Assembly: GCA_963775175.1 (NCBI GenBank)
Contig: CAVZHT010000001.1
Location: 2,434,940 to 2,458,939 of the forward strand
Direction: 5' to 3'
Source of the DNA: an uncultured Actinomycetota bacterium
GTDB taxonomy: Bacteria; Actinomycetota; Actinomycetes; Mycobacteriales; Jatrophihabitantaceae
Length of the DNA: 24,000 nt
Made by a program: the position numbers and the translations under genes. Under the pieces are notes generated by a model. It was not told the origin of the DNA. It did no database searches and saw only the letters and a list, made by a program, of their open reading frames with translations. Of the stretch, positions 707 to 22,096 are shown piece after piece (within the stretch, counting starts at the first letter, position 1; every line of letters starts with the position of its first letter).

Positions 707-3049
707 TCAGCGGTGCGCGGCCAGCGGCGTCGGCTGCGGGCCGTAGGCGGTCAGGAACCGGTCGCGGAAGCTGTCCATCGGCCACACCGGGGCCTTCGCG
801 CCCGGCAGCAGCCCGTCCGGCCAGCCCCACGCCGCGATCCGGTCCATGACCGACGGGTCGGCGCTGATCACGCTGATCGGCACGTCGTGGCTCGCCTGCG
901 TCCCGCTCACGATCGTGGCCGGCTGATGATCGCCGAGCACCACCAGCACCAGGTTCTTGTCGTGGAACGTCGTCACGAACGACACCAGCGTGCTGAGCGT
1001 GTACCGGATCGACTGCCCGTACGCCGCCTGCACATCGCTCGCGTGCTGCCACACCTCCTGCGGGGTGCGGCCCTGCTCGGGCATGCCCTCGAAGATCGTC
1101 CCGTCGCCGACGGCGTTCCAATCGACCGGGTGCGGCAGCGGCGCCCACGGCGTGTGCGACGAGACGAGGTCGATCTCGGCCATCACCGGGCGGTGGTGCG
1201 GCGCCGCGAGCTCGCGCTGCCGGAACGCCGACAGCACGTACTGGTCGGGCATCGCGGCGTAGCTGAACGACGGGCCGCGGTAGCCGACGTTGCGCCGGTC
1301 GTAGATCTTGTCGTAGTGGTAGAACGACCGGCCGACCGCCCAGTCCCGGTAGTTCGACGGCACGTCGTCGACCGTCCGCCACCCCGCCCGCTGGAACGCG
1401 CGGCTCAGCGTGAAGTGGTCGCCCTCGACGAGCTTGTCGTAGCGCTGCTGGCTGCTGATCCACAGCCCCGACTGCAGGGTGGAGTGCGCCAGCCAGCTGA
1501 TACCGCCGAACGTCGGTGACGTGAGGAACGCGCTGCGGGACGCGAAGCCGGCGGCCGCGAGGCTGCGGGTGCCGGACCTGAGCACGTCGTCCACCTGCGG
1601 CGAGAACGACGAACCCTGCACGGCCACCCTGCCGTAGCTCTCGACGAACGCCACGATGACGTCCTTGCCCCGCAGCCCGGTGAGCAGGTCGCTTCCCGGC
1701 TCCTGCGCGAACCGGTCGCCGGCCGAGAGCGCGTGGGAGAACCGGTGCTCGTCGGCGATCGCGGACCGGACGGCGTGGATCTGGTCGTAGGCCAGGCCGG
1801 CCGCGCTGGTGGAGGCGACCGGTGCCCCGGCGACGATCTGCACGCCGGAGACGGCGCAGACCACCCAGACCGCACCGAGCGCGCCGAGCGCCCGCAGCGA
1901 TCCGCGCCGGTGCCTGGCGGCGACCCGGCTCAGCCGCAGCATCGACAGCGGGACGAGGACGACGACGGCGATGCCGGCGAGCACCGCGGCGAGCTCGGCC
2001 ACGACGGCCCACCCCGGCCCGACCGAGTCGCGCAGCACGCCGGCCGCAGGCCCGAACGACCCCCAGTCCGACACCGGGTTGAACGGCCGGCCGAGCTGGT
2101 TGTAGAAGCCCACATCGAGGACCTTGACGACCCCCACCATCCCGAGCAGCAGCCCGACGAGCACCGCGAAGCCCGACCGCAGTCTCGTCGGCAGCACGAG
2201 GCCGGTGACGAGCACGACGAGGCCCTCGACCGGCACCCGGAGGAAGGCGCCCGGCGTCAGCTGTTCGAGGTGGTTCGGCGCCACCAGGGCGGCCCACACG
2301 AGCAGGAAGGCGAGGCCGGTGAGCACGAGAGGCAACGTCGACCGGTCCACGACGTCCTGGCCGCGGTGCCGCAGCCAGAGCCACCGCACGTCGTTTCCGA
2401 ACGACTCGGCGAGCAGCGCGAGCGCGGCGGCCACCGCCAGCACGATCAGCGGACCGGGCAGCAAGCCCGCCGCCGCCACGGTGAGCACGACCCCCTGGAT
2501 CGCCGCCACGACCTTGCACCAGTAGCGCGGCGGGGTCGGCTCGCGCAGCCACGACCATCGGCGGCCGGCCAGCCCGAACAGGTAGCGGGCCGCCCCGATC
2601 GCCAGCACCCACGGGCCCAGCAGCCGGGCGACGTACCCGCTGAGCACGAGGATCAGGAACGCGTCGACCTCCATGTCGAAGCGCGCCCCGTGCGGGGTGA
2701 CGGTGCCGGTGCGCCGCGCGATCCAGCCGTCCACCGCATCGAGGAGGAGCGCGGCGGAGGCCAGGGCGACCAGCGCGGCCACGGAGATGGACCGGTCCAG
2801 GGAGTCGGCGACCAGCGCGGCCACGCCGGCGGCGAGGTTGGCCCGGGCCAGCGTGACCCGGTCGGCCGGCCCGAACGCCGCGACGCCCGGCCGGGCGAAC
2901 GCGTACCGCACGACCGCGTTGACCCCGGCTGCCGCGACCGCGCCGGCGATCCAGCCCGCCGGCCCGAGCCCGACCGTCACCGCCAGCGCGGCGAGCAGCG
3001 TGATCGCGGCGGTCAGGCCCGCGACCGGGCCGGTTCGAACCGTCAGCAC
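707..3049 (-). CDS. Fusion protein: N-terminal CDP-alcohol phosphatidyltransferase, polytopic membrane linker, C-terminal LtaS/MdoB-type (sulfatase/alkaline-phosphatase superfamily) domain
   Basis: This is the C-terminal 780 codons of the tracked 1128-aa minus ORF. I place the start at GTG 3049, preceded by GGAGG with a 5-nt spacer. The CDP-OH transferase motif 'DGWIARRTGTVTPHGARFDMEVD' (DGxxAR..G...D...D) is present. Multiple hydrophobic helices follow. The C-terminal domain carries 'VIVAFVESYG', 'TSPTFGGISW' and 'VVLGDHQP', typical of LtaS/phosphoglycerol-transferase-like domains. The ORF part upstream of 3049 is antisense to the MDR gene and Arg/Pro/Gly-rich, so I excluded it. Confidence 0.8.
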   Translation of the reverse strand: MLTVRTGPVAGLTAAITLLAALAVTVGLGPAGWIAGAVAAAGVNAVVRYAFARPGVAAFGPADRVTLARANLAAGVAALVADSLDRSISVAALVALASAALLLDAVDGWIARRTGTVTPHGARFDMEVDAFLILVLSGYVARLLGPWVLAIGAARYLFGLAGRRWSWLREPTPPRYWCKVVAAIQGVVLTVAAAGLLPGPLIVLAVAAALALLAESFGNDVRWLWLRHRGQDVVDRSTLPLVLTGLAFLLVWAALVAPNHLEQLTPGAFLRVPVEGLVVLVTGLVLPTRLRSGFAVLVGLLLGMVGVVKVLDVGFYNQLGRPFNPVSDWGSFGPAAGVLRDSVGPGWAVVAELAAVLAGIAVVVLVPLSMLRLSRVAARHRRGSLRALGALGAVWVVCAVSGVQIVAGAPVASTSAAGLAYDQIHAVRSAIADEHRFSHALSAGDRFAQEPGSDLLTGLRGKDVIVAFVESYGRVAVQGSSFSPQVDDVLRSGTRSLAAAGFASRSAFLTSPTFGGISWLAHSTLQSGLWISSQQRYDKLVEGDHFTLSRAFQRAGWRTVDDVPSNYRDWAVGRSFYHYDKIYDRRNVGYRGPSFSYAAMPDQYVLSAFRQRELAAPHHRPVMAEIDLVSSHTPWAPLPHPVDWNAVGDGTIFEGMPEQGRTPQEVWQHASDVQAAYGQSIRYTLSTLVSFVTTFHDKNLVLVVLGDHQPATIVSGTQASHDVPISVISADPSVMDRIAAWGWPDGLLPGAKAPVWPMDSFRDRFLTAYGPQPTPLAAHR

Positions 3050-3127
3050 CCTTGCCTCCGTGTCTATGAGGTACAGGATTGGTACGGCGTGCACGAGCAC
3101 GCGGTTCAGCGAGAGGTCCGGACGGCG
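3050..3127. promoter_or_regulatory. Divergent promoter/operator spacer between the fusion gene and the MDR-led operon
   Basis: The 78-bp gap between the divergent start codons contains the least GC-rich stretch of this neighbourhood ('tgtctatgaggtacaggattggtacgg'). A direct GGTAC repeat sits at 3070-3074 and 3081-3085, 11 bp apart. I could not assign -10 or -35 elements with confidence. Confidence 0.35.
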
Positions 3128-4117
3128 ATGACGGCGGTGCGGCGAGAGGCCCGGGCGTTCTGGGTGCAGGCACCCGGTGCGGGTGAGATCCGGCCCGCGA
3201 CCCTCGCGCCGCCCGGCCCGGACGACGTCGTCGTCCGCACCCTGCACTCCGGCATCAGCCGCGGCACGGAGACGCTGGTGTTCCAAGGGCGCGTGCCGAA
3301 GGACCAGTACGCCGCGATGCGGGCGCCGTTCCAGGAGGGCGAGCTGCCCGGGCCGGTGAAATACGGCTACCTCAACGTCGGCGTGGTGGAGCACGGGCCG
3401 CGCCACCTGCAGGACCGCACCGTCTTCTGCCTGTACCCGCACCAGACGGCCTACGTGGTGCCGGCCCGGGCGGTGATCCCGGTGCCGGACGGCGTGCCGG
3501 CGTCGCGGGCCGTGCTCGCCGGGACGGTGGAGACGGCGGTCAACGCGCTGTGGGACGCCGCGCCGCTCGTCGGTGATCGGATCACCGTCGTCGGGGCCGG
3601 CATGGTCGGCTGCTGTGTCGCCCGGCTGCTCGCGCGGTACCCCGCCGTCGAGGTGACCCTCGTCGACATCGACGCCGGCCGGGCCGAGATCGCCGCGCAG
3701 CTGGGCGTCGGGTTCGCCCGGCCGGAGGACGCCACCGGCGAGCGCGACCTCGTCGTGCACACCAGCGCCACGTCGGCCGGGCTGCAGCTGGCGCTCGACC
3801 TGCTCGCGCCGGAGGGCACGGTCCTCGACCTCAGCTGGTACGGCGACGCCGACGTGACGCTGTCGCTGGGCGGCGCCTTCCACTCCCGGCGCCTCGGCAT
3901 CCGGTCCAGCCAGGTCGGGAAGGTCGCGCCCGCCCGCCGGGCCAACCGGACGACGACCGACCGGCTGGCCCTGGCCCTCGAGCTGCTGCGCGATCCGGCG
4001 TTCGACGCGCTGCTGACCGGCGCGTCGCCGTTCGAGGAGCTGCCCGACGTGCTGCCCCGCCTCGCCGACGGCCGCCGCCCGGCGCTGTGCCACAGCGTCA
4101 CCTACGGCGAGGGGTGA
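3128..4117 (+). CDS. MDR-superfamily (zinc-ADH-like) NAD(P)-dependent oxidoreductase, apparently lacking the catalytic-zinc Cys/His ligands
   Basis: ATG 3128 is in frame with the tracked ORF 1733..4117; only this 3' part has coding-like composition. A GroES-like N-terminus reads '[15 protein letters not shown]' where classical enzymes have 'CGxCxSDxH'. The Rossmann motif is '[15 protein letters not shown]'. Confidence 0.8.
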
Positions 4118-9078: not shown

Positions 9079-10170
9079 ATGGCGAACTCGACGCGCCGAC
9101 CGCCGACGAAGCGAGCGCCGGCCCGGCCGTCCGCGCCGCCCGCCCCCGAGCGGCGCCCCGTCCCGCCCGCGCTCGCCGCGCTGCAGCGGGACCCGCGCTG
9201 GATCCTGCTGCCGCTGCGGGCCTACCTCGGGTTCACGTTCCTCTACGCCGGGTTGTCCAAGGTCGGTGGCCACAGCTTCCTGGACGCCTCGTCGCCCACG
9301 TCGATGCACGCCACGCTGGTGGCGGTGCGCGGGCAGAGCCCGATCGGCGGGCTGCTCGGCCCGGTCGAGCAGCACTCGTACGCGTTCGGTCTGCTCATGG
9401 CCCTCGGCGAGCTGGCCGTCGGCATCGGCACCGCGCTCGGACTGTTCGCCCGGGTCGCGGCCACCGGCGGAGCCCTGATCTCGCTATCGCTCTTCCTGAC
9501 GGTGAGCTGGAACGCGACGCCGTGGTACACCGGCGCCGACATCGTCTACCTCTTCGCGTTCACGCCGATCCTGCTCGGCGGCGCCGGCCCGGTCTCGGCC
9601 GACGGCTGGCTGGCCCAGCAGCGGGCGCGCAGCACCGGCCGTGACGCGGTTGCCGAGGACCGCACCCGCCGGGCCGTCCTCGGCGGCATCGCCGGCATCG
9701 CCGGCCTGCTGGCCTTCGCGGTGGCCAGCCTGGTGCGCAAGGGAACGGGCGGGAGCCCGAGCGTCCAGGCCGGCGGCAACCAGACGGGCAGCGGGCCGAC
9801 CGGCGGGGCGCCGGCCGCGAGCGCGCCCGCCCCGAGCGGGTCGACGACCCCGGCGCGCGCGGCCACCGGCGGCAAGCCGATCATCGCCGCCGCCGCCGTC
9901 CCGGTCGGCGGCGCGGCCCCGGCCACGGATCCCAAGAACGGCGACCAGATCTTCGTCCTGCAGCTGAACGCCGGCGAGTTCACCGCGCTGGACAGCGCCT
10001 GCCCGCACCAGGGCTGCCCGGTCAGCTTCATCTCGAAGTCGCAGGGCTTCGTCTGCCCCTGCCACGGCTCGACCTTCGACGCCACCGGCGCGGTGACCCA
10101 GGGCCCGGCCGCGACCGGGCTGGCCAAGATCCCGGTCGCGAAGTCGGGCAGCGAGATCGTCCGGAAGTGA
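9079..10170 (+). CDS. DoxX-family membrane domain fused to a C-terminal Rieske [2Fe-2S] domain
   Basis: AAGGAG lies 6 nt before ATG 9079. The N-terminal 'LLPLRAYLGFTFLYAGLSK' plus four hydrophobic helices is DoxX-like. An internal twin-arginine-like anchor 'RTRRAVLGGIAGIAGLLAFAVA' (about 9661-9726) follows, then a Gly/Pro/Ala/Ser linker. The Rieske motifs 'CPHQGC' and 'CPCHGS' come at the C-terminus. Confidence 0.85.
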   Translation: MANSTRRPPTKRAPARPSAPPAPERRPVPPALAALQRDPRWILLPLRAYLGFTFLYAGLSKVGGHSFLDASSPTSMHATLVAVRGQSPIGGLLGPVEQHSYAFGLLMALGELAVGIGTALGLFARVAATGGALISLSLFLTVSWNATPWYTGADIVYLFAFTPILLGGAGPVSADGWLAQQRARSTGRDAVAEDRTRRAVLGGIAGIAGLLAFAVASLVRKGTGGSPSVQAGGNQTGSGPTGGAPAASAPAPSGSTTPARAATGGKPIIAAAAVPVGGAAPATDPKNGDQIFVLQLNAGEFTALDSACPHQGCPVSFISKSQGFVCPCHGSTFDATGAVTQGPAATGLAKIPVAKSGSEIVRK

Positions 10171-10786: not shown

Positions 10787-12076
10787 GTGTCCCGTCCCCG
10801 CCGTCGCAAGATCCTCGTTCTGGGCCTCGCGGCCGCCGCGATCGCGTGGCTGGTCGGCTCTGGGGCCGGAGCCGCGTCCGCCTCCGCGCACCCCCATCGC
10901 AGCCATACGCTCGTCGTCGCGGCCGGGGCGAGCACCACCAGCCACACCGCCGACCGCGGAAACCGCCACTCCTGCCGGCACGCCGGCTTCACCACCATCG
11001 GTGCCGCAGTGGCCGCGGCGTCGCCCGGCGACACCGTGCTGGTCTGTCCGGGCACCTACGCCGAGGACGTGCTCGTCGGCAAGAGCCTGCACCTCGTCGG
11101 CCGGCACGCGACGATCGACGCGACCGGGCGGGAGAACGCCCTGCAGATCGTCACGTCGTGGGTCTCGGTCAGCGGCTTCCGCCTCGCCAACGCGAACGGG
11201 GAGGGGCTGCTCGTCGGCGTCGACACCCTCGGCGACGCCGGGCTGCTGACCTCGCAGGTCCTCACCCACGTGCGGGTCGACCACGTTGCGGCCGTCGACA
11301 ACAACAAGGGCTTCAACGGCACCGAGAACAGCAACTGCAAGTACCCGGGCGACTGCGGCGGCGGCATCCACCTGCAGGTCACCAAGTGGTCGTCGGTGCG
11401 TGACTCGGTCGTGGTCGGCAACTCCGACGGCATCCTGGTGACCGACGACTACGGGCCGGCCTCGCACAACCTGGTCGAAGGCAACTACGTCAGCGACAAC
11501 ACGACCGAGTGCGGCATCGTCCTGCCGTCCCACAACCCCGGTGCGGTCACCTTCGACCCGCAGACCTTCGCGGTGACCGGGCGCAACCCGGACGTCGGCG
11601 GCGTCTTCGACAACGTCGTCAAGCACAACATCACGGTGCGCAACGGCACCGCGAAGGCCCCGCCCGAGTTCGGCGGCGGCGGCAGCGGCTCCGGCATCGG
11701 GATCTTCGGGTCGGGTCCGGGCACCGGCGCCTACGACAACGTGGTCGAGGACAACTACGCCGCAGGCAACGGCCTGGCCGGGTTCACCATCCACGCGCAC
11801 CTGCCCGGCGGCGAGGACGTCAACGGCAACCGGATCGTCGGCAACCTGTTCGGCACCAACAACACCGGCGGGGACGGCTACGACGGGCCGCCGGGGCCGA
11901 TCGACTTCCAGACGACCGGCATCGCCGTGTACTCGGCGCCGACGGTCCGGATGACCATCGAACACAACCGCATCTTCGACAACGAGATCGGGATCTGGTT
12001 GAGCAACACCGTCACCGCGCACGGGCTGAACCACAACCGGTTCTTCCACGTGACGACCCGGGTCGTTCGCGGCTGA
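10787..12076 (+). CDS. Secreted right-handed parallel beta-helix repeat protein (pectin-lyase-fold/NosD-like)
   Basis: GGAGGGA lies 6 nt before GTG 10787, in frame with the tracked ORF 10670..12076. The signal peptide is 'RRRKILVLGLAAAAIAWLVGSGAGAASASA'. Repeated 'N..(V/I).(G/D)N' beta-helix rungs are visible ('VVGNSDGILV', 'VEGNYVSDN', 'VVKHNITVRNG', 'VEDNYAAGNG', 'IVGNLFGTNN', 'IEHNRIFDNEIGIW'). Confidence 0.8.
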   Translation: MSRPRRRKILVLGLAAAAIAWLVGSGAGAASASAHPHRSHTLVVAAGASTTSHTADRGNRHSCRHAGFTTIGAAVAAASPGDTVLVCPGTYAEDVLVGKSLHLVGRHATIDATGRENALQIVTSWVSVSGFRLANANGEGLLVGVDTLGDAGLLTSQVLTHVRVDHVAAVDNNKGFNGTENSNCKYPGDCGGGIHLQVTKWSSVRDSVVVGNSDGILVTDDYGPASHNLVEGNYVSDNTTECGIVLPSHNPGAVTFDPQTFAVTGRNPDVGGVFDNVVKHNITVRNGTAKAPPEFGGGGSGSGIGIFGSGPGTGAYDNVVEDNYAAGNGLAGFTIHAHLPGGEDVNGNRIVGNLFGTNNTGGDGYDGPPGPIDFQTTGIAVYSAPTVRMTIEHNRIFDNEIGIWLSNTVTAHGLNHNRFFHVTTRVVRG

Positions 12077-12110
12077 CCGAGTGCCGCCGCGCTTCGCTAC
12101 CGTGGGGGTA

Positions 12111-12995
12111 ATGCGAGCGCGGAGACGGACCGGCGGCCGGCCGGGGGACGCCGGCCGCCGGTCCATCGGCACCTTCGTCGCCGTCGACGTGCCCGGGTTC
12201 CGCGGTCGCGTGCACGTGCGCGAGGACGGCCCGACGACCGCGCCGCCGCTGGTGATGCTGCACGGCTTCAGCGGCTCGCTGCACTGGTTCGACCGGGTCG
12301 TGCCGCTGCTCGCCGACCGGTTCCGGCTCGTCCGCATTGACCTGCTCGCGCACGGGTCGACCGGGGGCCCGGCCCTCGACGCGCCCGGCCAGGCCCGCGC
12401 CGTCGACGCCGTGCTCGCCGAGCTCGACGTCCGCGGCGCCACCGCGGTCGGCCACTCGTTCGGGGCCGATGTCGCGGTCGAGCTGGCCGAGCGGTCGGCC
12501 CGGATCGCGCGGCTCGTGATCGTGACCCAGGCGCCCGACTACTCGGACGCGACGCTGCCGCGCGGCAGCGTCCTGATGACCGTGCCCGTGCTCGGGCCGA
12601 TCCTCGGGGGCGTGCTCCAGCTGCTCGCCGCGACCCTCGGCGCCCTGGTCGTGCGGCGCCGCGCCGCCGCCCCCGGCGGCGAGCTCGCCGTGCAGGGGCT
12701 GCACGACTTCCGCGCCCTCGACCTCGCCATGTTCCGGGTCGTGCTGGTCGACCGGCGCGACCGCATGCAGGCCCGCCCGCTCGACGCGCAGGTCCGCGAC
12801 ACCGCGAAACCGACACTCGTCATCCTCGGCGAGCGGGACCACTTCTACGGCGCCCGCTCGGCGGCGCGCTACCGGGACGCCGGGGCCGAGGTGCGGGTGC
12901 TCGAGGACTCCGGGCACTCGCCGCTCGTCGAACTGCCCGGGCCGGCCGCCGGCCTGATCGGCGAGTTCGCCTGCGGCGCGCTGTCCGATTCGTGA
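12111..12995 (+). CDS. Alpha/beta-fold hydrolase
   Basis: It has the oxyanion-region 'LVMLHGFSGS', the nucleophile elbow 'GHSFG' and the C-terminal catalytic His context 'DSGHSPLVE'. I chose ATG 12111; the tracked ORF starts at GTG 12081. Confidence 0.8.
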   Translation: MRARRRTGGRPGDAGRRSIGTFVAVDVPGFRGRVHVREDGPTTAPPLVMLHGFSGSLHWFDRVVPLLADRFRLVRIDLLAHGSTGGPALDAPGQARAVDAVLAELDVRGATAVGHSFGADVAVELAERSARIARLVIVTQAPDYSDATLPRGSVLMTVPVLGPILGGVLQLLAATLGALVVRRRAAAPGGELAVQGLHDFRALDLAMFRVVLVDRRDRMQARPLDAQVRDTAKPTLVILGERDHFYGARSAARYRDAGAEVRVLEDSGHSPLVELPGPAAGLIGEFACGALSDS

Positions 12996-15619: not shown

Positions 15620-15677
15620 GGCCTCGGCTGACGACCGATCAGCTCGCCCGGCGGCGCCGCCTGTGAGAGGTGGCCTC

Positions 15678-16298
15678 GTGGCCGTAGACAATCAACTCCA
15701 GCTCGACCGACTCGCCCGCTCGTTCGCCGCCGTGGGCGACTTGATCGACGCGATCCAACCCGGCCAGTGGTGCGCGCCGACGCCATGCCTGGACTGGACC
15801 GTGCAGCGGCTCGTCGAGCACCTGGTCGGCAAGAATCTCGTGTTCACTGCGGTGCTCGCCGAGCGTCCGCTGCCGCAGCGCGGTGACGGCATGCCGAGCG
15901 ACCAACTCGCCCCCGCCTACCGCGCATCGGCCGCCGAACTGCTCGACGGGTTCGCGCAGCCCGGCGTTCTCGATCGCGTCCACCAGGGCCCGCTCGGGGC
16001 CGCCACCGGCGCCGAACGGTTGAAGATCCGCAGGTACGACCTGCTGGGCCACGGCTGGGACCTCGCTCAGGCTCTCGGGCGACCGGCAAAGCTGCCGGAG
16101 GACGCGGTGACGGATTCGCTGGCCTTCGCCCGCGCGGATGGGCGGGCGGTACGGCCCGGCGGCGGGTGCTTCGGCCCGCCCCGGCCCATCGACGACGCCG
16201 CCCCGGCCATCGAGCGGCTGGCCGCGTTCCTGGGCCGCGACGTGCCGGCCAACCGGACGATCAGACTAGCTCGAGGTCGCGGACCCCGAGCTCGGTGA
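15678..16298 (+). CDS. DinB-like / mycothiol-maleylpyruvate-isomerase N-terminal-domain family protein (actinobacterial uncharacterised subgroup)
   Basis: The pattern 'W..PTPC.DWTV..L..HL' is visible in 'QWCAPTPCLDWTVQRLVEHLVG', and the C-terminal region reads 'DLLGHGWDLAQALG'. I prefer GTG 15678 because of the upstream GAGAGGTGG; the tracked start is 15663. The last ~12 codons have poor GC3 because they overlap the convergent activase gene. Confidence 0.75.
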   Translation: MAVDNQLQLDRLARSFAAVGDLIDAIQPGQWCAPTPCLDWTVQRLVEHLVGKNLVFTAVLAERPLPQRGDGMPSDQLAPAYRASAAELLDGFAQPGVLDRVHQGPLGAATGAERLKIRRYDLLGHGWDLAQALGRPAKLPEDAVTDSLAFARADGRAVRPGGGCFGPPRPIDDAAPAIERLAAFLGRDVPANRTIRLARGRGPRAR

Positions 16299-16986
16299 GT
16301 TGCGTGCCGTAGGCCGCCAGGCGGTCCGGGTCGGCTTCGTTCCAGATCCGGGCGGCCCCGCGGGCGCCGTGCCGGCGAAAGCCGATCACCTTGATCCGCA
16401 TGGCCGGGTCGACGTCGAGCAGCCACCGGACGGTGCGCTCCAGGGTCGCCGGGCCGTCGTTCACCCCGGGGACGAGCAGTAGCCGGGTCTCGTACAGCTT
16501 CCCGGCCGCGGCGGCCTGCCGGATCGCGGCCAGGACGGGCGCGTTCTCCGCCCCGGTGAGCTCGCGATGGGCGGCCGGGTCGAGGGCCTTCAGGTCGAGC
16601 ATCACACCGTCGGTCACCGGCAGCAGCGACGACCACACCTCGGCCGGGGCCGCGCCGTTGCTGTCGATGAACCGGGTGAGGTGACGCAGCTGCCGGTCCG
16701 CGGCCAGGGCCGCGAAGAAGGCACCGACGAACGGCGCCTGCAGCGTCGCCTCGCCGCCGGAGACCGTGACGCCCGACAGGAACGGCGCGACCGCCCGCAC
16801 CTCCGCCACCAGCTCGCCCACCTCGACAGTGCGGGCGCGCGGCGTCTTCACCGGGATCGTCTGCGGGTTGTGGCACGCGAGGCAGTTGAAGTTGCAGCCC
16901 TGCAGGAAGATCACGAACCGGTTGCCCGGCCCGTCCACCCACGAGAACCGGATGACGTCAGCGACGAGCGCCGGCGGCGGTCTCAA
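16261..16986 (-). CDS. yjjW: Glycyl-radical enzyme activating protein (radical SAM, YjjW-type)
   Basis: The N-terminus 'SWVDGPGNRFVIFLQGCNFNCLACHN' carries the CxxxCxxC radical-SAM cluster motif in the PFL-activase context, and 'TVSGGEATL' is the SAM-binding motif. The gene lies immediately downstream of, and overlaps, the glycyl-radical enzyme gene. The only start codon available is TTG 16986, a 29-nt overlap, so the start is uncertain. Confidence 0.85.
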   Translation of the reverse strand: MRPPPALVADVIRFSWVDGPGNRFVIFLQGCNFNCLACHNPQTIPVKTPRARTVEVGELVAEVRAVAPFLSGVTVSGGEATLQAPFVGAFFAALAADRQLRHLTRFIDSNGAAPAEVWSSLLPVTDGVMLDLKALDPAAHRELTGAENAPVLAAIRQAAAAGKLYETRLLLVPGVNDGPATLERTVRWLLDVDPAMRIKVIGFRRHGARGAARIWNEADPDRLAAYGTQLTELGVRDLELV

Positions 16987-18514
16987 TGCTGATCACCCGC
17001 TTCGGCGCCCGGTCGGTGACATGGCTGTTCGCCACCGACCCGGCGGCCAGGTACGTGCTGGCGTGCCGGGCACCCTCGGCCGGCAGGGCGGCGAGATCGG
17101 ACTTGCGCACGAGGTAGCCGGTGATCCGGATGAAGTCGTTGCTGTCGAGGTTGAACGTGAAGTCCCGCAGCCCGACCTTGAACGCGCCGCGGATCACATC
17201 GACGACCGCCCGCGGGTTGCGCCGCGCGGTGTCGTCGAAGGCGAGGACGTCGCTGATCCCGGAGGCGAAGCGCTTGTGGTGCGGGGCCACCGTCAGCAGG
17301 TGCTCGACCAGCGGTGGCTCGCTGCCGACCGGTATGCGGGTACCGGCGGTGACGTCGTGGTCGAGATCGATGCCGGACTGCGAGTGCAGGAAGCAGCGGC
17401 CGGCGTTGCCCGCGCAGTAGGGCATCGGCCGCTCGGCGACCAGGGTGGCGACCCGGTCGATGATCCGGTACGACAGCTCGTTCGCGGCGTGGTCGTGGCC
17501 GTAGCGGGCTTGCGGCGAGCCGGCCCGTTCCATCAGCAGGTCGACCGCCTCGGCGAGGCCGAAGATGCCGAACATCGCCGAGAATGCGTCGAGCGAGATC
17601 AGCCCCTCATGGACGAGCCAGCTGTGCTCGTAGAACCGCGCCTGCTCGACGAGATGCCGGATGCGGGATTCGGCGAGCTCGGCGGTCAGCTCCACGTAGG
17701 TGGGCAACGAGTCGGCGAGGAACGAGTCGGCGTCCCCGTCGTGGGCGACGACGGCCTGCTTGAGGTTGAGCCGGACGAGCGTGTGCGACCCGCCGCCGAT
17801 CCGCAGCGAGTTGTAGCAGCTCACCGCCGCGTACCGCTCGCCGAGGTCGTGGGTCATCATCGGGTGGGCGACGAAGTGCGGCTTGCCGCACTCGAAGACG
17901 GTGCGGACGGCGTCCAGCAGGTAGTCGTCCGGCGTCCGCTCCGGGTCGACCCGCAGGGTCAGGTTCGGCACCACCTGCAACAGCTCGCGTTCGAGGCGCA
18001 GCACCGTCCGGCCGACCCGGCTGTCGTCGGGGCCCAGGTCGGTGTGCGTGAAGGCGTCCGGGAACATCCGGTCGAGGCTGATCCAGAACAGCCGCAGCCG
18101 CCGGTACAGCTCGTCGTCGCCGACCCCGTCGAGGTAGGGCTCGAGCAGCGCGTCCAGATCGCCCAGGTACACCGGATAGCCGGTGATGGACGGGACGTGG
18201 GTGTAGAGGATCAGCAGGAAGGCCAGCGCCTCCTCGAGATCGCCCGCGGGCGGCAGCTCGAGGAACGCCGAACCGTTGCGAAGCGCCACCGCGTAGTCGG
18301 GCAGGACGTAGCGGGGCCGGTAGGGCGCGTTGCCCTCGTACATGTCGCAGATGACGCGCTTGTCCAGCGCCTGCGCGCAGGCGTCCGAGACCGGGGGCGG
18401 ATCCACGGCATTCTCCGCCAGTGCCGCCAACTGGTGCAGGCGCTGCCGGTAGGTGAGCGCCGGGTCGTCGACCACGCGGCGCACGAGGCAGCGGAGCTCG
18501 AAGGTCTCCATCAC
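16958..18514 (-). CDS. yjjI: YjjI-family (DUF3029-type) short glycyl-radical enzyme
   Basis: 518 aa. The C-terminal glycyl-radical fingerprint is 'FIRITGYLVRK' (Gly codon 17117-19, matching RVxG[FWY]). Its size is well below PFL-type enzymes. It is paired with a dedicated activase, as in the E. coli yjjI-yjjW arrangement. The start is GTG 18514 or ATG 18511. Confidence 0.85.
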   Translation of the reverse strand: MMETFELRCLVRRVVDDPALTYRQRLHQLAALAENAVDPPPVSDACAQALDKRVICDMYEGNAPYRPRYVLPDYAVALRNGSAFLELPPAGDLEEALAFLLILYTHVPSITGYPVYLGDLDALLEPYLDGVGDDELYRRLRLFWISLDRMFPDAFTHTDLGPDDSRVGRTVLRLERELLQVVPNLTLRVDPERTPDDYLLDAVRTVFECGKPHFVAHPMMTHDLGERYAAVSCYNSLRIGGGSHTLVRLNLKQAVVAHDGDADSFLADSLPTYVELTAELAESRIRHLVEQARFYEHSWLVHEGLISLDAFSAMFGIFGLAEAVDLLMERAGSPQARYGHDHAANELSYRIIDRVATLVAERPMPYCAGNAGRCFLHSQSGIDLDHDVTAGTRIPVGSEPPLVEHLLTVAPHHKRFASGISDVLAFDDTARRNPRAVVDVIRGAFKVGLRDFTFNLDSNDFIRITGYLVRKSDLAALPAEGARHASTYLAAGSVANSHVTDRAPKRVISIETAAGARR

Positions 18515-18667
18515 CTCAGGCTAGGCACCGGCGACCGGGCCGGTAGGGCCCAAGGTCCAGGCGAAACCGGGCCGGGCCGAGATGCTCATCCGCGCCGTTC
18601 CCCTGCCGATACCTGAATTGCGGGCCTCGTGCGGGGTGCCCGCTTCGTGCCGATGGAGGGAGCGCGC
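18515..18667. promoter_or_regulatory. Divergent promoter region between the glycyl-radical operon and the c-di-GMP gene
   Basis: This is a 153-bp non-coding gap between divergent starts. I did not recognise an operator; no FNR/CRP-like TTGAT-N4-ATCAA site was seen. Confidence 0.35.
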
Positions 18668-21600
18668 GTGGCCGAGCCGGGAACCGTCCTCGCGCTGACC
18701 CCGAGCATCGGCGGCTACTACTTCGGCGAGCTGCTCACCGGCCTGAACCGCGAGATCGCGGCGGCCGGCGGGCGGCTCCTTCTCGTGCAGACGCCACCGG
18801 CCGGCGCCCGCGACGACGGCGTCGAGTGCAGCACCTTCTCGACCCCGGTGGCCTGGTCACACATCGACGGCGTCGTCTCGGTCACCACCGCGGCCCGCGG
18901 GACCTACCTGCAGCAGTTGCGGGACGCCGGGAAGCCCGTGGTTCTGGTGAGCACCCGGATGCCCGACTTCGAGGCGCCGCTCGCCGTGCCGGACAACCGC
19001 GGCGGCGCCCGGGCCGCCGTCGAGCACCTGATCTCGCACGGCCACACCCGGATCGGGTTCGTCGGCAATCTCGGCCAGCCGGACATCCGCGACCGGCACG
19101 CCGCCTACCTCCAGGTGCTCCGGGCCCACGGCCTCCGAGCCGAGCCCGGGTTCCTGTACCGGGCGGCCAACAACGACTGGACCGGCGGCGAGGAGGCCGC
19201 CCGGGCGCTGCTCGCCGGGCGTGACCGCCCGACCGCGGTCTTCGCGGCCACCGACCGGAACGCGATCGGCCTGATGCGCACGCTCGCCGAGGCGGGCTTG
19301 GGGATGCCGCGCGACCTCGCGGTCATCGGTTTCGACGACGTCGAGGCCGCCGCCTTCAGCACCCCGACCCTGTCCAGCGTCAGGCAGCGGTTCGACGACG
19401 TCGGCGCGCTCGCCGGCCGCATGCTGCTCGAGCGCATCAGGGGGCGGTCCGTGGCGTTCCGCGAACACGTGCTGCCGACCTCCATCCTCACCCTGCGCGG
19501 TTCGTGCGGGTGCGCGACCGATGCGATGGGGGTCGGGATCGAGCACCTCGACCCGCTGCCCGGCGCGACCGCGGCGCCTCGCCGGTGGGACGAACTGCAG
19601 GCGACGATCGTGCGATCGCTGTACACCGGGCACCGCGCCATCGACGGACCGGCCCGGCGGGCCGTCCGGGCGACCGTCGGCGAGATCGAGCGGGTCGTCC
19701 GGGCCGGCGACGCCGCGACCGCCGAGGAGTTGCTGAGCGTGACGGACTCGATCAACGACCTCTCGGCGCACCCGGTCGTCCAGCGCCGGATCGTCGGGGC
19801 CGTCCTCGACCACCTGCGCTCGGCGCCGGGCGGCGAGCCGTCCGCGGCCGCCGCCACCCAGCTGATCGCCGCGTTGTGGCGCCTGCAGGTGCGGGCCTTC
19901 CTGCAGCAGGTGGAGAGCACGCAGACGGCGCTGGAGGAGCAGTACCAGGTCGACGCCGGGCTGCTCGACGGCCAGGCCGATGCCCGCGACCTCGCCTGGC
20001 TGACCGGCACCCACGTCCGGGCCGGCGTCCTGGCCCTGTGGGAGGGCGGACCCTCGTCCGGGCGCCTTCGCATCGCCGGTCACTACGACCCGCACGGCCT
20101 GCTGGCCGACCCGCCCGGTGACGTGACCACGCCGCAGCAGTTCCCGCCACCGGCGCTGCTGGATGCGGCCGGCACCCCCGACGGCGGCGTCTGCATCGTC
20201 GTCCCGGTCGCGAGCGCCGAGGACGACTGGGGGCTGCTCGCGGTCATCGGCGAGATCAACACCGCGTCGACGCTGGAGACCTACCGGCACTGGGCCACCC
20301 AGCTGTGCGCGTCCTTCCAGGAGGAGAAGCTGCAGGAGGCGGTCCGCGACAGCGAGCAGCGCTACGCGCTCGCCGCCCGCGCGACCAACGACGGCTTGTG
20401 GGAGTGGGATCTCGGCACCGACGCGTTCTACATGTCCGAGCGGTGCATCGAACTGGTGGGCCTGGACCGGGCCGACGCCGAGCGCCGCCTCGACCAGTGG
20501 CGGGCGCGGGTGCACCCGGACGACGTGGGCGAGATGGAGCAGGCGATGGGCCGGGTCCTGTCCGGCTCGCAGCAGACCGTCAGCGTCGAGTACCGGGTGC
20601 GCGCCGGCGACGGGACGCACCGGTGGGTGCTGTCGCGGGCGCTGTCGGTCCGCTCGGCCGACGGCGGCGCCGAGCGGTTGGTGGGCTCGCTGTCCGACAT
20701 CCACGACCGCCGCTCCCTGGAGGAACAGCTGCGGGCCAACGCGCTGCACGACGAGCTGACCGGCCTGCCCAACCGGCGCCTGTTCCTCGCCCGGCTCGAG
20801 CACGCCGTCGAGCTGCAGAAGCGGTTCGCCACCCCATTCGCGGTGATCTTCCTCGACCTCGACGGGTTCAAGGCGATCAACGACTCGCTCGGCCACCAGA
20901 TGGGCGACCGGCTGCTCGCCGCCGTCGGTGATCGCATCCAGGGCGAGTTGCGAGGCGTGGACACCGGCGCCCGCTTCGGCGGCGACGAGTTCGCGATCCT
21001 CCTGCACGACGCGACCCACGACGACGTCCTGCGGGTCGCCCGGCGGGTGCAGTCGGCCGTCCGGGAAGTGATCGCGATCGACGGTCACGAGTTCGTGATC
21101 GGCGCGAGCCTCGGCGTCACCACCAGCGACGTCGACTACTCCTGCGCCGAGGACGTCCTGCGCGATGCCGACACCGCCATGTACCACGCGAAGGAGACCG
21201 AGCGCGGCACGCTCGCGTTCTTCGACGAGACGATGCACGCCCGGGCGCTGAACCAGCTTCGGCTCAACGCCGAACTGCGCCGCGCGCTCGACGACGGCCA
21301 GTTCGAGGTGCACTTCCAGCCCATCGTCGACCTGGTGTCCGGTCGGGCCGACGAGTTCGAGGCCCTGGTGCGCTGGCGGCACCCCGAGCGGGGGCTCGTC
21401 CCACCGGGGGAGTTCCTGCCGCTCATGGCCGAGACCGGCCTCATCGTCCCGCTCGGCCAGTGGGTGATCGACGAGGTCTGCCGCCGCCTCGCCGAGTGGG
21501 GGCCGGCCGTGGCCGGCGTCTCGGTGAACCTGTCCGACCGGGAGTTCTGGCACGCGGACCTGCTCGCCCACCTGTCGGCCTGCCTGACCCGGCACGACGT

Positions 21601-22096
21601 CGACCCGGGCCGGCTCACCCTCGAGATCACCGAAGGCGTGATCATGCGCCGGCCCGAGGCGGCGCGACGCCTGATGCAGGCGATGCACGCGGCCGGGCTG
21701 CGCCTGCACATCGACGATTTCGGAACGGGCTACTCGTCGCTGGAGACCCTGCACAAGTTCCCGGTCGACGCGCTGAAGATCGACCGCTCGTTCGTCGCCG
21801 GACTCGCGACCGGCGACCACAGCGACGAGCTGGTCCGCGCCATCATCGCCATGGGCGCGGCCCTCGACCTCACCGTCGTGGCCGAGGGGGTCGAGACCGA
21901 CCTCCAGCTCCGCTTCCTGCGCCAGGCCGGCTGCGAGGCGGCCCAAGGGTTCCGGTTCCGGCCGGCCGTTGCCGGGGACGAGGTCGCGGCGATCCTCGGC
22001 ACCGTGTTCTGCACCGAGCAACGCCGCGCGGGCGCCCGCCGCCCCGCCACCGCGCACCGCGGACGGCCCGAGCGGGCCGACACCGTCCCGGTCTGA
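18668..22096 (+). CDS. Multidomain c-di-GMP turnover protein: LacI-type ligand-binding core (no HTH), GAF-like region, PAS, GGDEF and EAL
   Basis: GGAGGGAG lies 5-7 nt before GTG 18668; the tracked ORF starts at 18629. The N-terminal ~280 aa align by eye with LacI/PurR sugar-binding cores ('RIGFVGNLG', 'TAVFAATDRNAIGLMRTLAEAGLGMPRDLAVIGFDD', 'PTLSSVRQ'). The PAS domain includes 'NDGLWEWDL...HPDD...EYRVR..DG..RWV'. The GGDEF domain has an intact 'GGDEF' (20978-20992) and an RxxD I-site 'RGVD' five residues upstream. The EAL domain has 'EALVRW', 'NLS', 'EITE', 'DDFGTGYSS', 'KIDRSF', 'EGVET' and 'QGF'. Confidence 0.85.
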   Translation: MAEPGTVLALTPSIGGYYFGELLTGLNREIAAAGGRLLLVQTPPAGARDDGVECSTFSTPVAWSHIDGVVSVTTAARGTYLQQLRDAGKPVVLVSTRMPDFEAPLAVPDNRGGARAAVEHLISHGHTRIGFVGNLGQPDIRDRHAAYLQVLRAHGLRAEPGFLYRAANNDWTGGEEAARALLAGRDRPTAVFAATDRNAIGLMRTLAEAGLGMPRDLAVIGFDDVEAAAFSTPTLSSVRQRFDDVGALAGRMLLERIRGRSVAFREHVLPTSILTLRGSCGCATDAMGVGIEHLDPLPGATAAPRRWDELQATIVRSLYTGHRAIDGPARRAVRATVGEIERVVRAGDAATAEELLSVTDSINDLSAHPVVQRRIVGAVLDHLRSAPGGEPSAAAATQLIAALWRLQVRAFLQQVESTQTALEEQYQVDAGLLDGQADARDLAWLTGTHVRAGVLALWEGGPSSGRLRIAGHYDPHGLLADPPGDVTTPQQFPPPALLDAAGTPDGGVCIVVPVASAEDDWGLLAVIGEINTASTLETYRHWATQLCASFQEEKLQEAVRDSEQRYALAARATNDGLWEWDLGTDAFYMSERCIELVGLDRADAERRLDQWRARVHPDDVGEMEQAMGRVLSGSQQTVSVEYRVRAGDGTHRWVLSRALSVRSADGGAERLVGSLSDIHDRRSLEEQLRANALHDELTGLPNRRLFLARLEHAVELQKRFATPFAVIFLDLDGFKAINDSLGHQMGDRLLAAVGDRIQGELRGVDTGARFGGDEFAILLHDATHDDVLRVARRVQSAVREVIAIDGHEFVIGASLGVTTSDVDYSCAEDVLRDADTAMYHAKETERGTLAFFDETMHARALNQLRLNAELRRALDDGQFEVHFQPIVDLVSGRADEFEALVRWRHPERGLVPPGEFLPLMAETGLIVPLGQWVIDEVCRRLAEWGPAVAGVSVNLSDREFWHADLLAHLSACLTRHDVDPGRLTLEITEGVIMRRPEAARRLMQAMHAAGLRLHIDDFGTGYSSLETLHKFPVDALKIDRSFVAGLATGDHSDELVRAIIAMGAALDLTVVAEGVETDLQLRFLRQAGCEAAQGFRFRPAVAGDEVAAILGTVFCTEQRRAGARRPATAHRGRPERADTVPV

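Follow-up and report, generated by a model that had tools for sequence, protein, structure and literature searches.

Introduction

Glycyl radical enzymes (GREs) are grouped into seven classes, each with recognizable hallmarks, in a June 2026 review of the superfamily (PMC13450708). According to this review, two cysteines in the Cys loop are a feature of PFL and TdcE only, a C-x-E motif is kept by the eliminases and isomerases, class III ribonucleotide reductases (RNRs) use a pair of active-site cysteines, and aminoacyl radical enzymes lack the glycine; the typical mass within the superfamily is 80-100 kDa. The YjjI family stands outside this scheme, and YjjI, YjjW and DUF3029 are never mentioned in the review. 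Here we describe a yjjI-family gene and the gene of its radical S-adenosylmethionine (SAM) activase in a 24,000-nt stretch of DNA from an uncultured member of the Jatrophihabitantaceae (Actinomycetota; contig CAVZHT010000001.1 of assembly GCA_963775175.1, positions 2,434,940 to 2,458,939), which in its whole length is referred to below as the window. The pair is preceded by a conserved element that looks like a low-oxygen promoter element of the DosR/DevR type.

Among the known systems closest to this pair are YjjI (b4380) and its activase YjjW (b4379) from E. coli K-12. In searchable papers, YjjI is an E. coli GRE still without a reaction: full-text searches of papers up to August 2026 found no reaction assignment, which agrees with a preliminary description of the window stating that the family has no assigned substrate. 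A 2011 biclustering paper reported that yjjI of E. coli and Salmonella is co-expressed with narG and carries FNR-like motifs, and predicted a role in 'nitrogen metabolism'.

A YjjI-family gene pair in the window

The enzyme gene was located at 16958..18514 on the minus strand as a 518-aa open reading frame (ORF) starting from GTG at 18514, and its product is a full-length YjjI-family GRE. It matched the NCBIfam model TIGR04040 at 693.4 bits (cutoff 498.3) over model positions 3-497 of 497 and the Pfam model PF11230 (YjjI-like) at 651.9 bits against a cutoff of 23 (E = 6e-196), and it was 49% identical to E. coli K-12 YjjI over its full length. The gene of the glycyl-radical activating enzyme, a short-form radical-SAM protein of 241 aa with a TTG start, lies at 16261..16986 (-). 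Both ORFs are real genes and not chance frames, as judged from a third-position GC of 0.95 in each (the GC content of the window is about 70-79%), the strong family matches, and the ratios of nonsynonymous to synonymous substitution (dN/dS) against relatives. The enzyme gave ratios of 0.17-0.33 and the activase ratios of 0.29-0.54, and both genes evolve under purifying selection (dN/dS < 1).

The true enzyme start is probably the ATG at 18511, because an identical database protein (517 aa), encoded on a 4.05-Mb contig, begins there and the promoter geometry described below fits this position. The resulting 517-aa protein would have a mass of 57.3 kDa, in line with the preliminary description, which had called the family much shorter than PFL, class III RNR or benzylsuccinate synthase-type enzymes. 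Translation also bore out both ORFs, the overlap between them and the motifs that had been listed earlier, namely RITGY with its Gly codon (GGC) at 17117..17119 and AVSCYNS in the enzyme, and DGPGNR and CNFNCLAC in the activase. The earlier statement that the protein ends with RITGY was correct as to the motif and not as to its position, as the motif lies 52 residues upstream of the enzyme C-terminus.

To place the pair among its relatives, one genome per species was scanned, which returned at least 569 loci encoding YjjI relatives; the best 80 of these were analyzed and are called the related loci here. The last 29 nt of the enzyme gene are also the first 29 nt of the activase gene (16958..16986, (-)). 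An overlap of exactly this length recurs in E. coli K-12 (L001, 9516..9544) and in 54 of the 80 related loci. The activase start codon at this position was GTG, TTG or ATG among the relatives. It was noted that such an overlap probably serves translational coupling.

The upstream element and putative promoter geometry

We compared the 150 nt upstream of yjjI with random windows of the same loci by k-mer enrichment. The k-mer GGGACCTT, enriched de novo, was found in 12 loci against a background of 0.2, and the full motif, (c)GGGACC-TT-(C/G)GGCCCT, was positioned 44-46 nt before the start codon. A position weight matrix (PWM) was then built from 22 sites. At a threshold score of 12 or more, it matched the zone -120..-30 of yjjI in 34 of the 80 loci, including 14 outside the training set, compared to 47 matches elsewhere in 2.6 million scanned positions. 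The box of the window, CTGGACCTTGGGCCCT, lies at 18545..18560 (-) and was recovered by k-mer enrichment and by the PWM. Its PWM score of 22.8 marks the sole PWM match in the window, and it was likewise the sole match to GGACCTTSGGCCCT in the window with up to two mismatches allowed, the match being exact.

By its sequence and placement, this box looks like a DosR/DevR-type low-oxygen promoter element. The stringent DosR consensus has been given as GGGACTTNNGNCCCT (PMC6448022), and the window box agrees with it at 10 of the 12 specified positions. For a non-circular enrichment test, we used this published consensus instead of our own matrix. With at most one mismatch, it was found upstream of yjjI in 15 of the 80 loci compared to 0.017 expected, whereas the remaining 2.59 million positions held 6 sites. 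When Y was accepted at position 6, as the published weak DosR consensus permits (PMC6448022), upstream sites were found in 28 of the 80 loci (0.056 expected). In Streptomyces, the OsdR consensus AGGGCCGATCGGCCCT, which has been described as conforming to the DevR box (PMC5069765), shares 12 of 16 positions with our motif consensus cGGGACCTTCGGCCCT, and the right halves are identical. DevR contacts GGGACT in each half-site (PMC3177182).

The spacing of the promoter elements was also conserved. A -10-like hexamer, TAGCCT (TANNNT), is found at 18518..18523 (-), and across loci the hexamer stays at a constant 40-41 nt from where the 20-nt PWM window holding the box begins, with TAGCGT, TACCGT and TACGGT as the hexamers of other loci. 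TANNNT is reported to be the preferred SigA -10 in M. smegmatis, and among mycobacterial transcripts about one in four is leaderless (PMC6448022). In the window, the ATG at 18509..18511 (-) lies 6 nt downstream of the -10, and in most box-bearing loci an ATG or GTG follows the -10 after 6-7 nt. From this conserved spacing of box, -10 and start, a leaderless mRNA is predicted, with the ATG as the putative joint start of transcription and translation, a position that coincides with the database protein start. The box would then have its center at about -41.5, compared with -42.5 for the primary DevR box of tgs1 (PMC3177182).

The same box was encountered before further genes of the related genomes. 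Pyridox_ox_2 genes were preceded by it in two loci (L022 947(-)/979(+) and L023 5689(-)/5712(+)), as was a Rv2632c-like/DUF1918 gene in a third (L010 12251(+)). A pyridoxamine-phosphate oxidase, SCO0214, is an OsdR target with a box at -50, and no glycyl radical enzyme is named in the OsdR paper, where the word 'glycyl' occurs 0 times (PMC5069765). The box-preceded genes together could outline a hypoxia regulon in the related genomes. We also observed the box before genes for a dehydrogenase E1 alpha subunit and for a nitronate-monooxygenase-like protein, the remaining sites being L003 19403(+) and L032 6115(+); the Pyridox_ox_2 gene of L022 forms a back-to-back pair with a gene for an MMPL-like transporter. 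Among other regulatory patterns, Rex, FNR, CRP and exact GGGAC..GTCCC patterns gave no matches upstream of yjjI, an NsrR-like pattern was found in 2 of 81 upstream regions, and a scan for sigma-70 promoters and intrinsic terminators found nothing.

Several observations weigh against a DevR-type assignment. The window box departs from the stringent consensus at two positions, carrying T instead of G at position 1 and C instead of T at position 6. Activation by DevR usually requires two tandem boxes, of which the secondary ones carry little information (PMC3177182), and a clear second box was found in L009 only, with none clear in the window. No DevR/DevS gene lies within the 24-kb window, and the box center of about -41.5 is counted from a predicted transcription start at ATG 18511. 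In the 80-locus PWM scan, the box was not found in low-GC Planktophila-type loci, in Trueperaceae or in non-actinobacterial carriers, so regulation through the box appears to be lineage-specific.

These points leave room for a different reading, in which the motif would serve as a -35 element for an alternative sigma factor or be bound by an unrelated regulator, and the link to hypoxia would be spurious. The two deviations, the restriction of obvious tandem boxes to one locus and the lack of a linked regulator gene, together with the fact that the box is known here from its sequence, all speak for it. Against it, the motif agrees with three independent published DevR/DosR/OsdR consensus strings (PMC6448022, PMC5069765, PMC3177182), the enrichment holds with the published consensus, and the box also precedes gene families known from DevR/OsdR regulons. 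The distances to the -10 (~31 nt from GGACC and ~22 nt from the right half-site) are too long for a -35/-10 pair, and the sigma factor version was rejected on this spacing of 22-31 nt. We regard this alternative as unlikely, and a DosR/DevR-type element as the better description of the box.

As a separate observation, the Acidimicrobiales locus L009 carries a tandem pair of boxes before yjjI, spaced 18 nt apart (3289..3326), the distal one of which, GGACCTTGGTCC, is a perfect palindrome.

Fold and catalytic residues of the enzyme

We next considered which kind of GRE is encoded. An AlphaFold2 model of the enzyme was built on 60 diverse family members and reached a mean predicted local distance difference test score (pLDDT) of 93 and a predicted template modeling score (pTM) of 0.92. 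In this model, the enzyme adopts the GRE barrel fold and is nearest to the class III RNRs. A Foldseek comparison with the PDB placed class III RNRs in all of the top 23 matches (probability 1.0, E down to 5e-17, query-normalized TM-score (TMq) 0.65-0.75), including those of P. copri (8p2s, E = 5e-17), S. thermophilus (9dca, TMq 0.75) and phage T4 (1hk8). PflD/YbiW, PFL, and the diol and hydroxyproline dehydratases followed, also with a probability of 1.0. Searches of solved structures by sequence gave chance matches only for the single protein, and marginal matches only, to NrdD and PFL, for the family profile.

The Gly motif R-[VI]-x-G-[FWY] is present as RITGY at residues 463-467 (R463-I-T-G466-Y467; 17114..17128, (-)) and is placed by the model at the tip of the hairpin E461-464/E467-470. 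The glycyl radical is predicted to reside on G466. In live cells, a radical-trap probe labeled Gly465 of E. coli YjjI, the homologous residue that aligns with G466 (preprint 10.64898/2026.08.13.742689, August 2026). The extended GRE fingerprint tail x4-Q-x2-[IV]-x2-R was not found after the Gly motif of the enzyme. The Cys loop S232-C233-Y234-N235-S236 (17807..17821, (-)) carries the predicted thiyl radical site, C233 (codon TGC, 17816..17818), at the tip of the hairpin E228-232/E235-238. In a family-profile alignment, which is weak, 'vvSCYNS' stands opposite the PFL Cys loop 'iaCCVSS'.

Residue conservation was assessed across 19 full-length representatives with identities down to 32%, among which 30 positions were invariant. 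These included E60, R68, Y69, D121, D148, H157, N184, S232, C233, N235, R248, E303, H377, Q379, D385, R393, R463 and G466, so that the invariant charged set comprises four Arg, two His and five acidic residues. R463 and G466 were invariant in the 60-member family set as well. C233 was the sole invariant Cys of the family, which, with its place at a hairpin tip, strengthens the earlier suggestion of AVSCYNS as the candidate thiyl site. The preliminary description had also called for a barrel with apposed Gly and Cys loops, of which the barrel and both hairpin tips were recovered.

Judging from these motifs, YjjI fits no characterized glycyl radical class, because its S-C-Y-N loop holds a single Cys and neither a C-x-E motif nor a second redox Cys is present. 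The adjacent Cys pair of PFL and TdcE was not found in the loop, which reads S-C, nor was the C-x-E of eliminases and isomerases, in the place of which stands C-Y-N with an invariant N235. The active-site Cys pair of the class III RNRs was also not found, C233 alone being invariant.

The structural matches nevertheless raise the question of whether YjjI could be a minimal oxygen-independent RNR, or a close mechanistic relative of one, that supplies deoxynucleotides in hypoxia. In addition to the class III RNRs being the top structural matches, the enzyme shows a weak hit to the Pfam NRDD model (PF13597), the profile matches P. copri NrdD at E = 0.014, and the Gly motif RITGYLV is identical in that protein. 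E. coli yjjI adjoins the deoCABD nucleoside-catabolism operon, and the DosR regulon of M. tuberculosis includes the alternative RNR nrdZ. The NRDD hit, however, covers residues 196-357 only and its 21.3 bits fall under the gathering score of 26.2. The chemistry of an RNR requires a Cys pair, whereas YjjI has one invariant Cys; when the profile was aligned with E. coli NrdD by hhalign, C175 fell in a gap of YjjI, although this alignment (probability 29%) is too weak for active-site residues to be placed with confidence. NrdD carries a C-terminal Zn(Cys)4 site, and the enzyme has no cysteines after residue 374, which excludes a zinc site of the NrdD type. An ATP-cone is also lacking, and a normal NrdD is present in E. 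coli and many clostridia in addition to YjjI. An RNR role is thus improbable in our view.

We give a similarly low rating to the proposal that YjjI is a truncated but ordinary PFL-like enzyme, acting either as a 2-keto-acid formate-lyase or as a C-x-E dehydratase or isomerase. The confident Foldseek matches to PflD/YbiW, PFL, and the diol and hydroxyproline dehydratases would fit this proposal, as would faint PF02901 (PFL-like) matches in many homologs and the alignment of the Cys loop with that of PFL in the profile. The invariant S-C-Y-N is neither C-C nor C-x-E, however, and the Q-x2-[IV]-x2-R part of the fingerprint tail is absent. The mass of 57 kDa also compares with 80-100 kDa for the superfamily, and genes for handling coenzyme A or aldehydes are not linked to the pair.

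Two forms of the activase

The activase contains the Pfam domains PF04055 and PF13353. Its top NCBIfam model was TIGR04041 (YjjW), at 228.3 bits and under the cutoff of 250.2, with the match split into two stretches and model positions roughly 45-86 missing; the second-best family was TIGR02493 (PflA) at 137.7 bits (cutoff 231.75). BLASTP gave 37% identity with E. coli YjjW and a gap of 46 residues where YjjW has its Cys-rich ferredoxin-like insert, and it is the lack of this insert that brings the score under the YjjW cutoff. Only three cysteines were found in the whole protein (C31, C35 and C38). They form the CX3CX2C motif CNFNCLAC (16873..16896, (-)), which binds the radical-SAM [4Fe-4S] cluster. 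The N-terminal glycine-rich motif DGPGNR (16918..16935, (-)), typical of glycyl-radical activases, aligns with DGPGSR of E. coli YjjW. The activase is the positional ortholog of YjjW; the earlier identification as a YjjW-type protein therefore holds for best family, position, overlap and motifs and fails for the TIGR04041 cutoff.

The CX3CX2C motif was present at the same position in 79 of the 80 related activases, and two forms were distinguished among the 78 complete activases beside YjjI. The short form (47/78) has 232-302 aa and 2-7 cysteines, mostly 3-4, without a CX2CX2CX3C motif. It is carried by the Nanopelagicales, Nocardioides and Dactylosporangium group, in addition to the window. 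The long form (31/78) has about 285 aa, 10-14 cysteines and one or two CX2CX2CX3C motifs, and was encountered in the Ilumatobacteraceae, other Acidimicrobiia, Trueperaceae, E. coli and the clostridial examples. A ferredoxin-like domain of unknown function is present in most activases, and only those of PFL and the class III RNRs are without it (PMC13450708). In the YjjI family, one orthologous group pairs the same enzyme with activases that have or miss this domain, which amounts to a natural experiment.

In the activase of L011 (about 11523..12248), a CX3CX2C motif was not recognizable and only 2 cysteines were counted; the first ORF call there was truncated to 179 aa, starting 160 nt past yjjI. 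A frameshift or an assembly error may lie behind this anomaly, or the gene may be a pseudogene.

Distribution and gene neighborhood

The best 80 loci were mostly from Actinomycetota. Their lineages included the Nanopelagicales with Ca. Planktophila, the Ilumatobacteraceae and other Acidimicrobiia, the Nocardioidaceae, Dactylosporangium, Planomonospora, Phycicoccus and the Jatrophihabitantaceae, with a few loci from Trueperaceae, one Verrucomicrobiales genome and one deltaproteobacterium. The closest species-representative match to the window enzyme was 85% identical. The closest 120 database relatives were all at least 69% identical to the enzyme; the named ones belong to Nocardioides, Dactylosporangium, Nanopelagicales and Acidimicrobiales and are annotated 'YjjI family glycine radical enzyme'. 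More distant family members were found in the Clostridia, Halanaerobiales, Bacteroidota and Gammaproteobacteria. The family is compact, with 500 clusters (50% identity) at E below 0.001, about 20 of them full length. The actinobacterial setting is thus common for yjjI and not special.

The activase gene lies directly downstream of yjjI in all 80 related loci. All-against-all clustering of the ORFs of these loci returned no conserved neighbor other than the activase, and none of nine window neighbors checked in them was syntenic with yjjI. In the anaerobe loci of Anoxybacter and Tepidibacter, the pair again forms an isolated two-gene unit. The two genes are best explained as an autonomous two-gene module, and the neighborhood survey proposed earlier for co-conserved transporters or regulators returned none beyond the activase.

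Because the window neighbors show no synteny, the LLM, PAC2 and other 'aerobic' genes are uninformative about the enzyme. The preliminary description had inferred a micro-oxic capability from these neighbors. The capability itself is supported by the conserved DosR/DevR-like box, although the reasoning that led to it is not. It was also noted that the LLM and PAC2 genes are present as described, whereas the scanned ORFs contained no Cu monooxygenase, only NosD-like and Rieske/DoxX proteins.

It is hardly credible that the pair is a relic without function in an aerobe: the host lineage is usually deemed aerobic and the neighbors are unrelated, but the frames are intact with all catalytic motifs present, the dN/dS values given above are low in both genes, the overlap and promoter architecture are conserved across families, and at least 569 species-level genomes, including the streamlined Planktophila, keep the gene.

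In some Acidimicrobiia and Ilumatobacteraceae, one or two ABC-exporter-like genes (about 540-625 aa) adjoin the pair, either upstream (L055, L056, L058, L060, L070, L078) or downstream (L028, L031, L040, L044, L065); they are a lineage-specific feature and are absent from the window. Two further loci, L051 and L052, are on two contigs of one metagenome-assembled genome of the Nocardioidaceae and have a neighboring ABC gene at identical coordinates. Their yjjI copies are probably an assembly duplication rather than paralogs.

Proposed mechanism

On balance, we favor a model in which a hypoxia-responsive DevR-type promoter drives the coupled yjjI and activase genes, and the enzyme uses a radical relay from G466 to C233 to act on a small central metabolite. 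Under low oxygen or NO/CO stress, a response regulator of the DevR/DosR/OsdR type would bind at 18545..18560 and activate the promoter with the -10 TAGCCT, giving a leaderless mRNA from ATG 18511. Translation of the activase would be coupled to that of the enzyme through the 29-nt overlap. From what is known of the family, the activase would hold a single [4Fe-4S] cluster, bound by C31, C35 and C38, without auxiliary clusters, cleave S-adenosylmethionine, and remove a hydrogen from G466. The radical would then move from G466 to C233 on the opposing hairpin, where the thiyl would abstract a hydrogen from the substrate. A promoter of the DosR/DevR-like type would explain how an oxygen-sensitive enzyme is accommodated in an aerobic lifestyle.

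The substrate is the least certain step. It may be a small, probably anionic central metabolite that undergoes a redox-neutral bond cleavage or rearrangement, and the chemistry of YjjI would be distinct from the formate-lyase, C-x-E eliminase and RNR types. We propose this because no pathway or transporter gene is linked to the pair in any lineage, because four Arg, two His and five acidic residues are invariant, and because the Cys loop is C-Y-N, not C-C or C-x-E, without a second redox Cys. A further point against the model is that its substrate step is argued only from a negative, the absence of linked genes, and from residue chemistry.

A broader reading is possible and is offered here tentatively. 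YjjI might represent an eighth functional GRE class with an RNR-side structure, a single cysteine in a C-Y-N loop and an undescribed reaction, and might serve as a conserved effector of a DosR/DevR-type hypoxia (dormancy) response that acts on a central metabolite across many Actinomycetota and related Acidimicrobiia.

Other features of the window

Divergent from yjjI, across a 114-nt intergenic region, lies a gene (18629..22096, (+)) for a 1155-aa protein with a LacI-type periplasmic-binding-protein sensor domain and with PAS, GGDEF and EAL domains. It is not syntenic with yjjI in the related loci. With the DosR-like box 69-84 nt ahead of its own start, the gene might be co-regulated with yjjI, as in divergent DevR promoters. 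On the other side of the pair, a convergent MDMPI_N/DinB-like gene (15663..16298, (+)) overlaps the activase gene by 38 nt, 3' end to 3' end.

Further away, a 1128-aa ORF at 707..4093 (-) has a central CDP-alcohol phosphatidyltransferase as its sole recognized domain, and a long shadow ORF is found opposite to it (1733..4117, (+)). In a 363-aa protein encoded at 9079..10170 (+), a DoxX/DoxD membrane domain is joined to a Rieske [2Fe-2S] domain at the C-terminus.

Comparison with known systems

The window pair is a further member of an already known orphan family, to which the promoter link and the activase variant add value. Members of the family abound in nominally aerobic Actinomycetota, among them the freshwater Nanopelagicales and Planktophila, and oxygen-sensitive radical chemistry may be routine in the low-oxygen survival of these organisms. 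The DosR-like promoter offers a concrete expression condition, which narrows the search for the substrate.

Compared to the E. coli K-12 pair (b4380/b4379), the window pair has the same S-C-Y-N Cys loop, a Gly loop of the same R-[VI]-T-G-Y form, and an activase gene immediately downstream with the same 29-nt overlap, and both pairs are uncharacterized. They differ in the activase, which in E. coli has 287 aa with a ferredoxin-like insert of ~46 residues and here has 241 aa with 3 cysteines, and in their upstream regions, which carry FNR/NarL-type motifs in E. coli and a DosR/DevR-like box with a predicted leaderless start here.

The class III RNRs resemble the enzyme as its top structural match and in the Gly motif RITGYLV shared with P. 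copri NrdD, and NrdG, like the window activase, consists of the radical-SAM domain alone (PMC13450708). Sequence identity to these RNRs is only 12-15%, and the window enzyme is about 100-200 residues shorter and lacks the second active-site Cys, the C-terminal zinc-site Cys residues and the ATP-cone. PflB shares the ten-stranded barrel with Cys and Gly finger loops, as far as the structural model indicates, and PflA is likewise a single-cluster activase whose model, TIGR02493, was the second-best family. In contrast to PflB, the enzyme has one loop Cys instead of two, a mass of 57 kDa and no fingerprint tail, and the activase scored far under the TIGR02493 cutoff of 231.75.

The promoter can be compared with those controlled by DevR/DosR in M. 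tuberculosis and M. smegmatis and by OsdR in Streptomyces. A tandem second box, usual in DevR-activated promoters, is mostly not evident at yjjI. The box itself resembles both GGGACTTNNGNCCCT and AGGGCCGATCGGCCCT, its center would lie near -42 if transcription starts at the predicted ATG, compared with -42.5 for the primary box of tgs1, and the Pyridox_ox_2 and Rv2632c-like genes that it precedes in related genomes would be sister targets.

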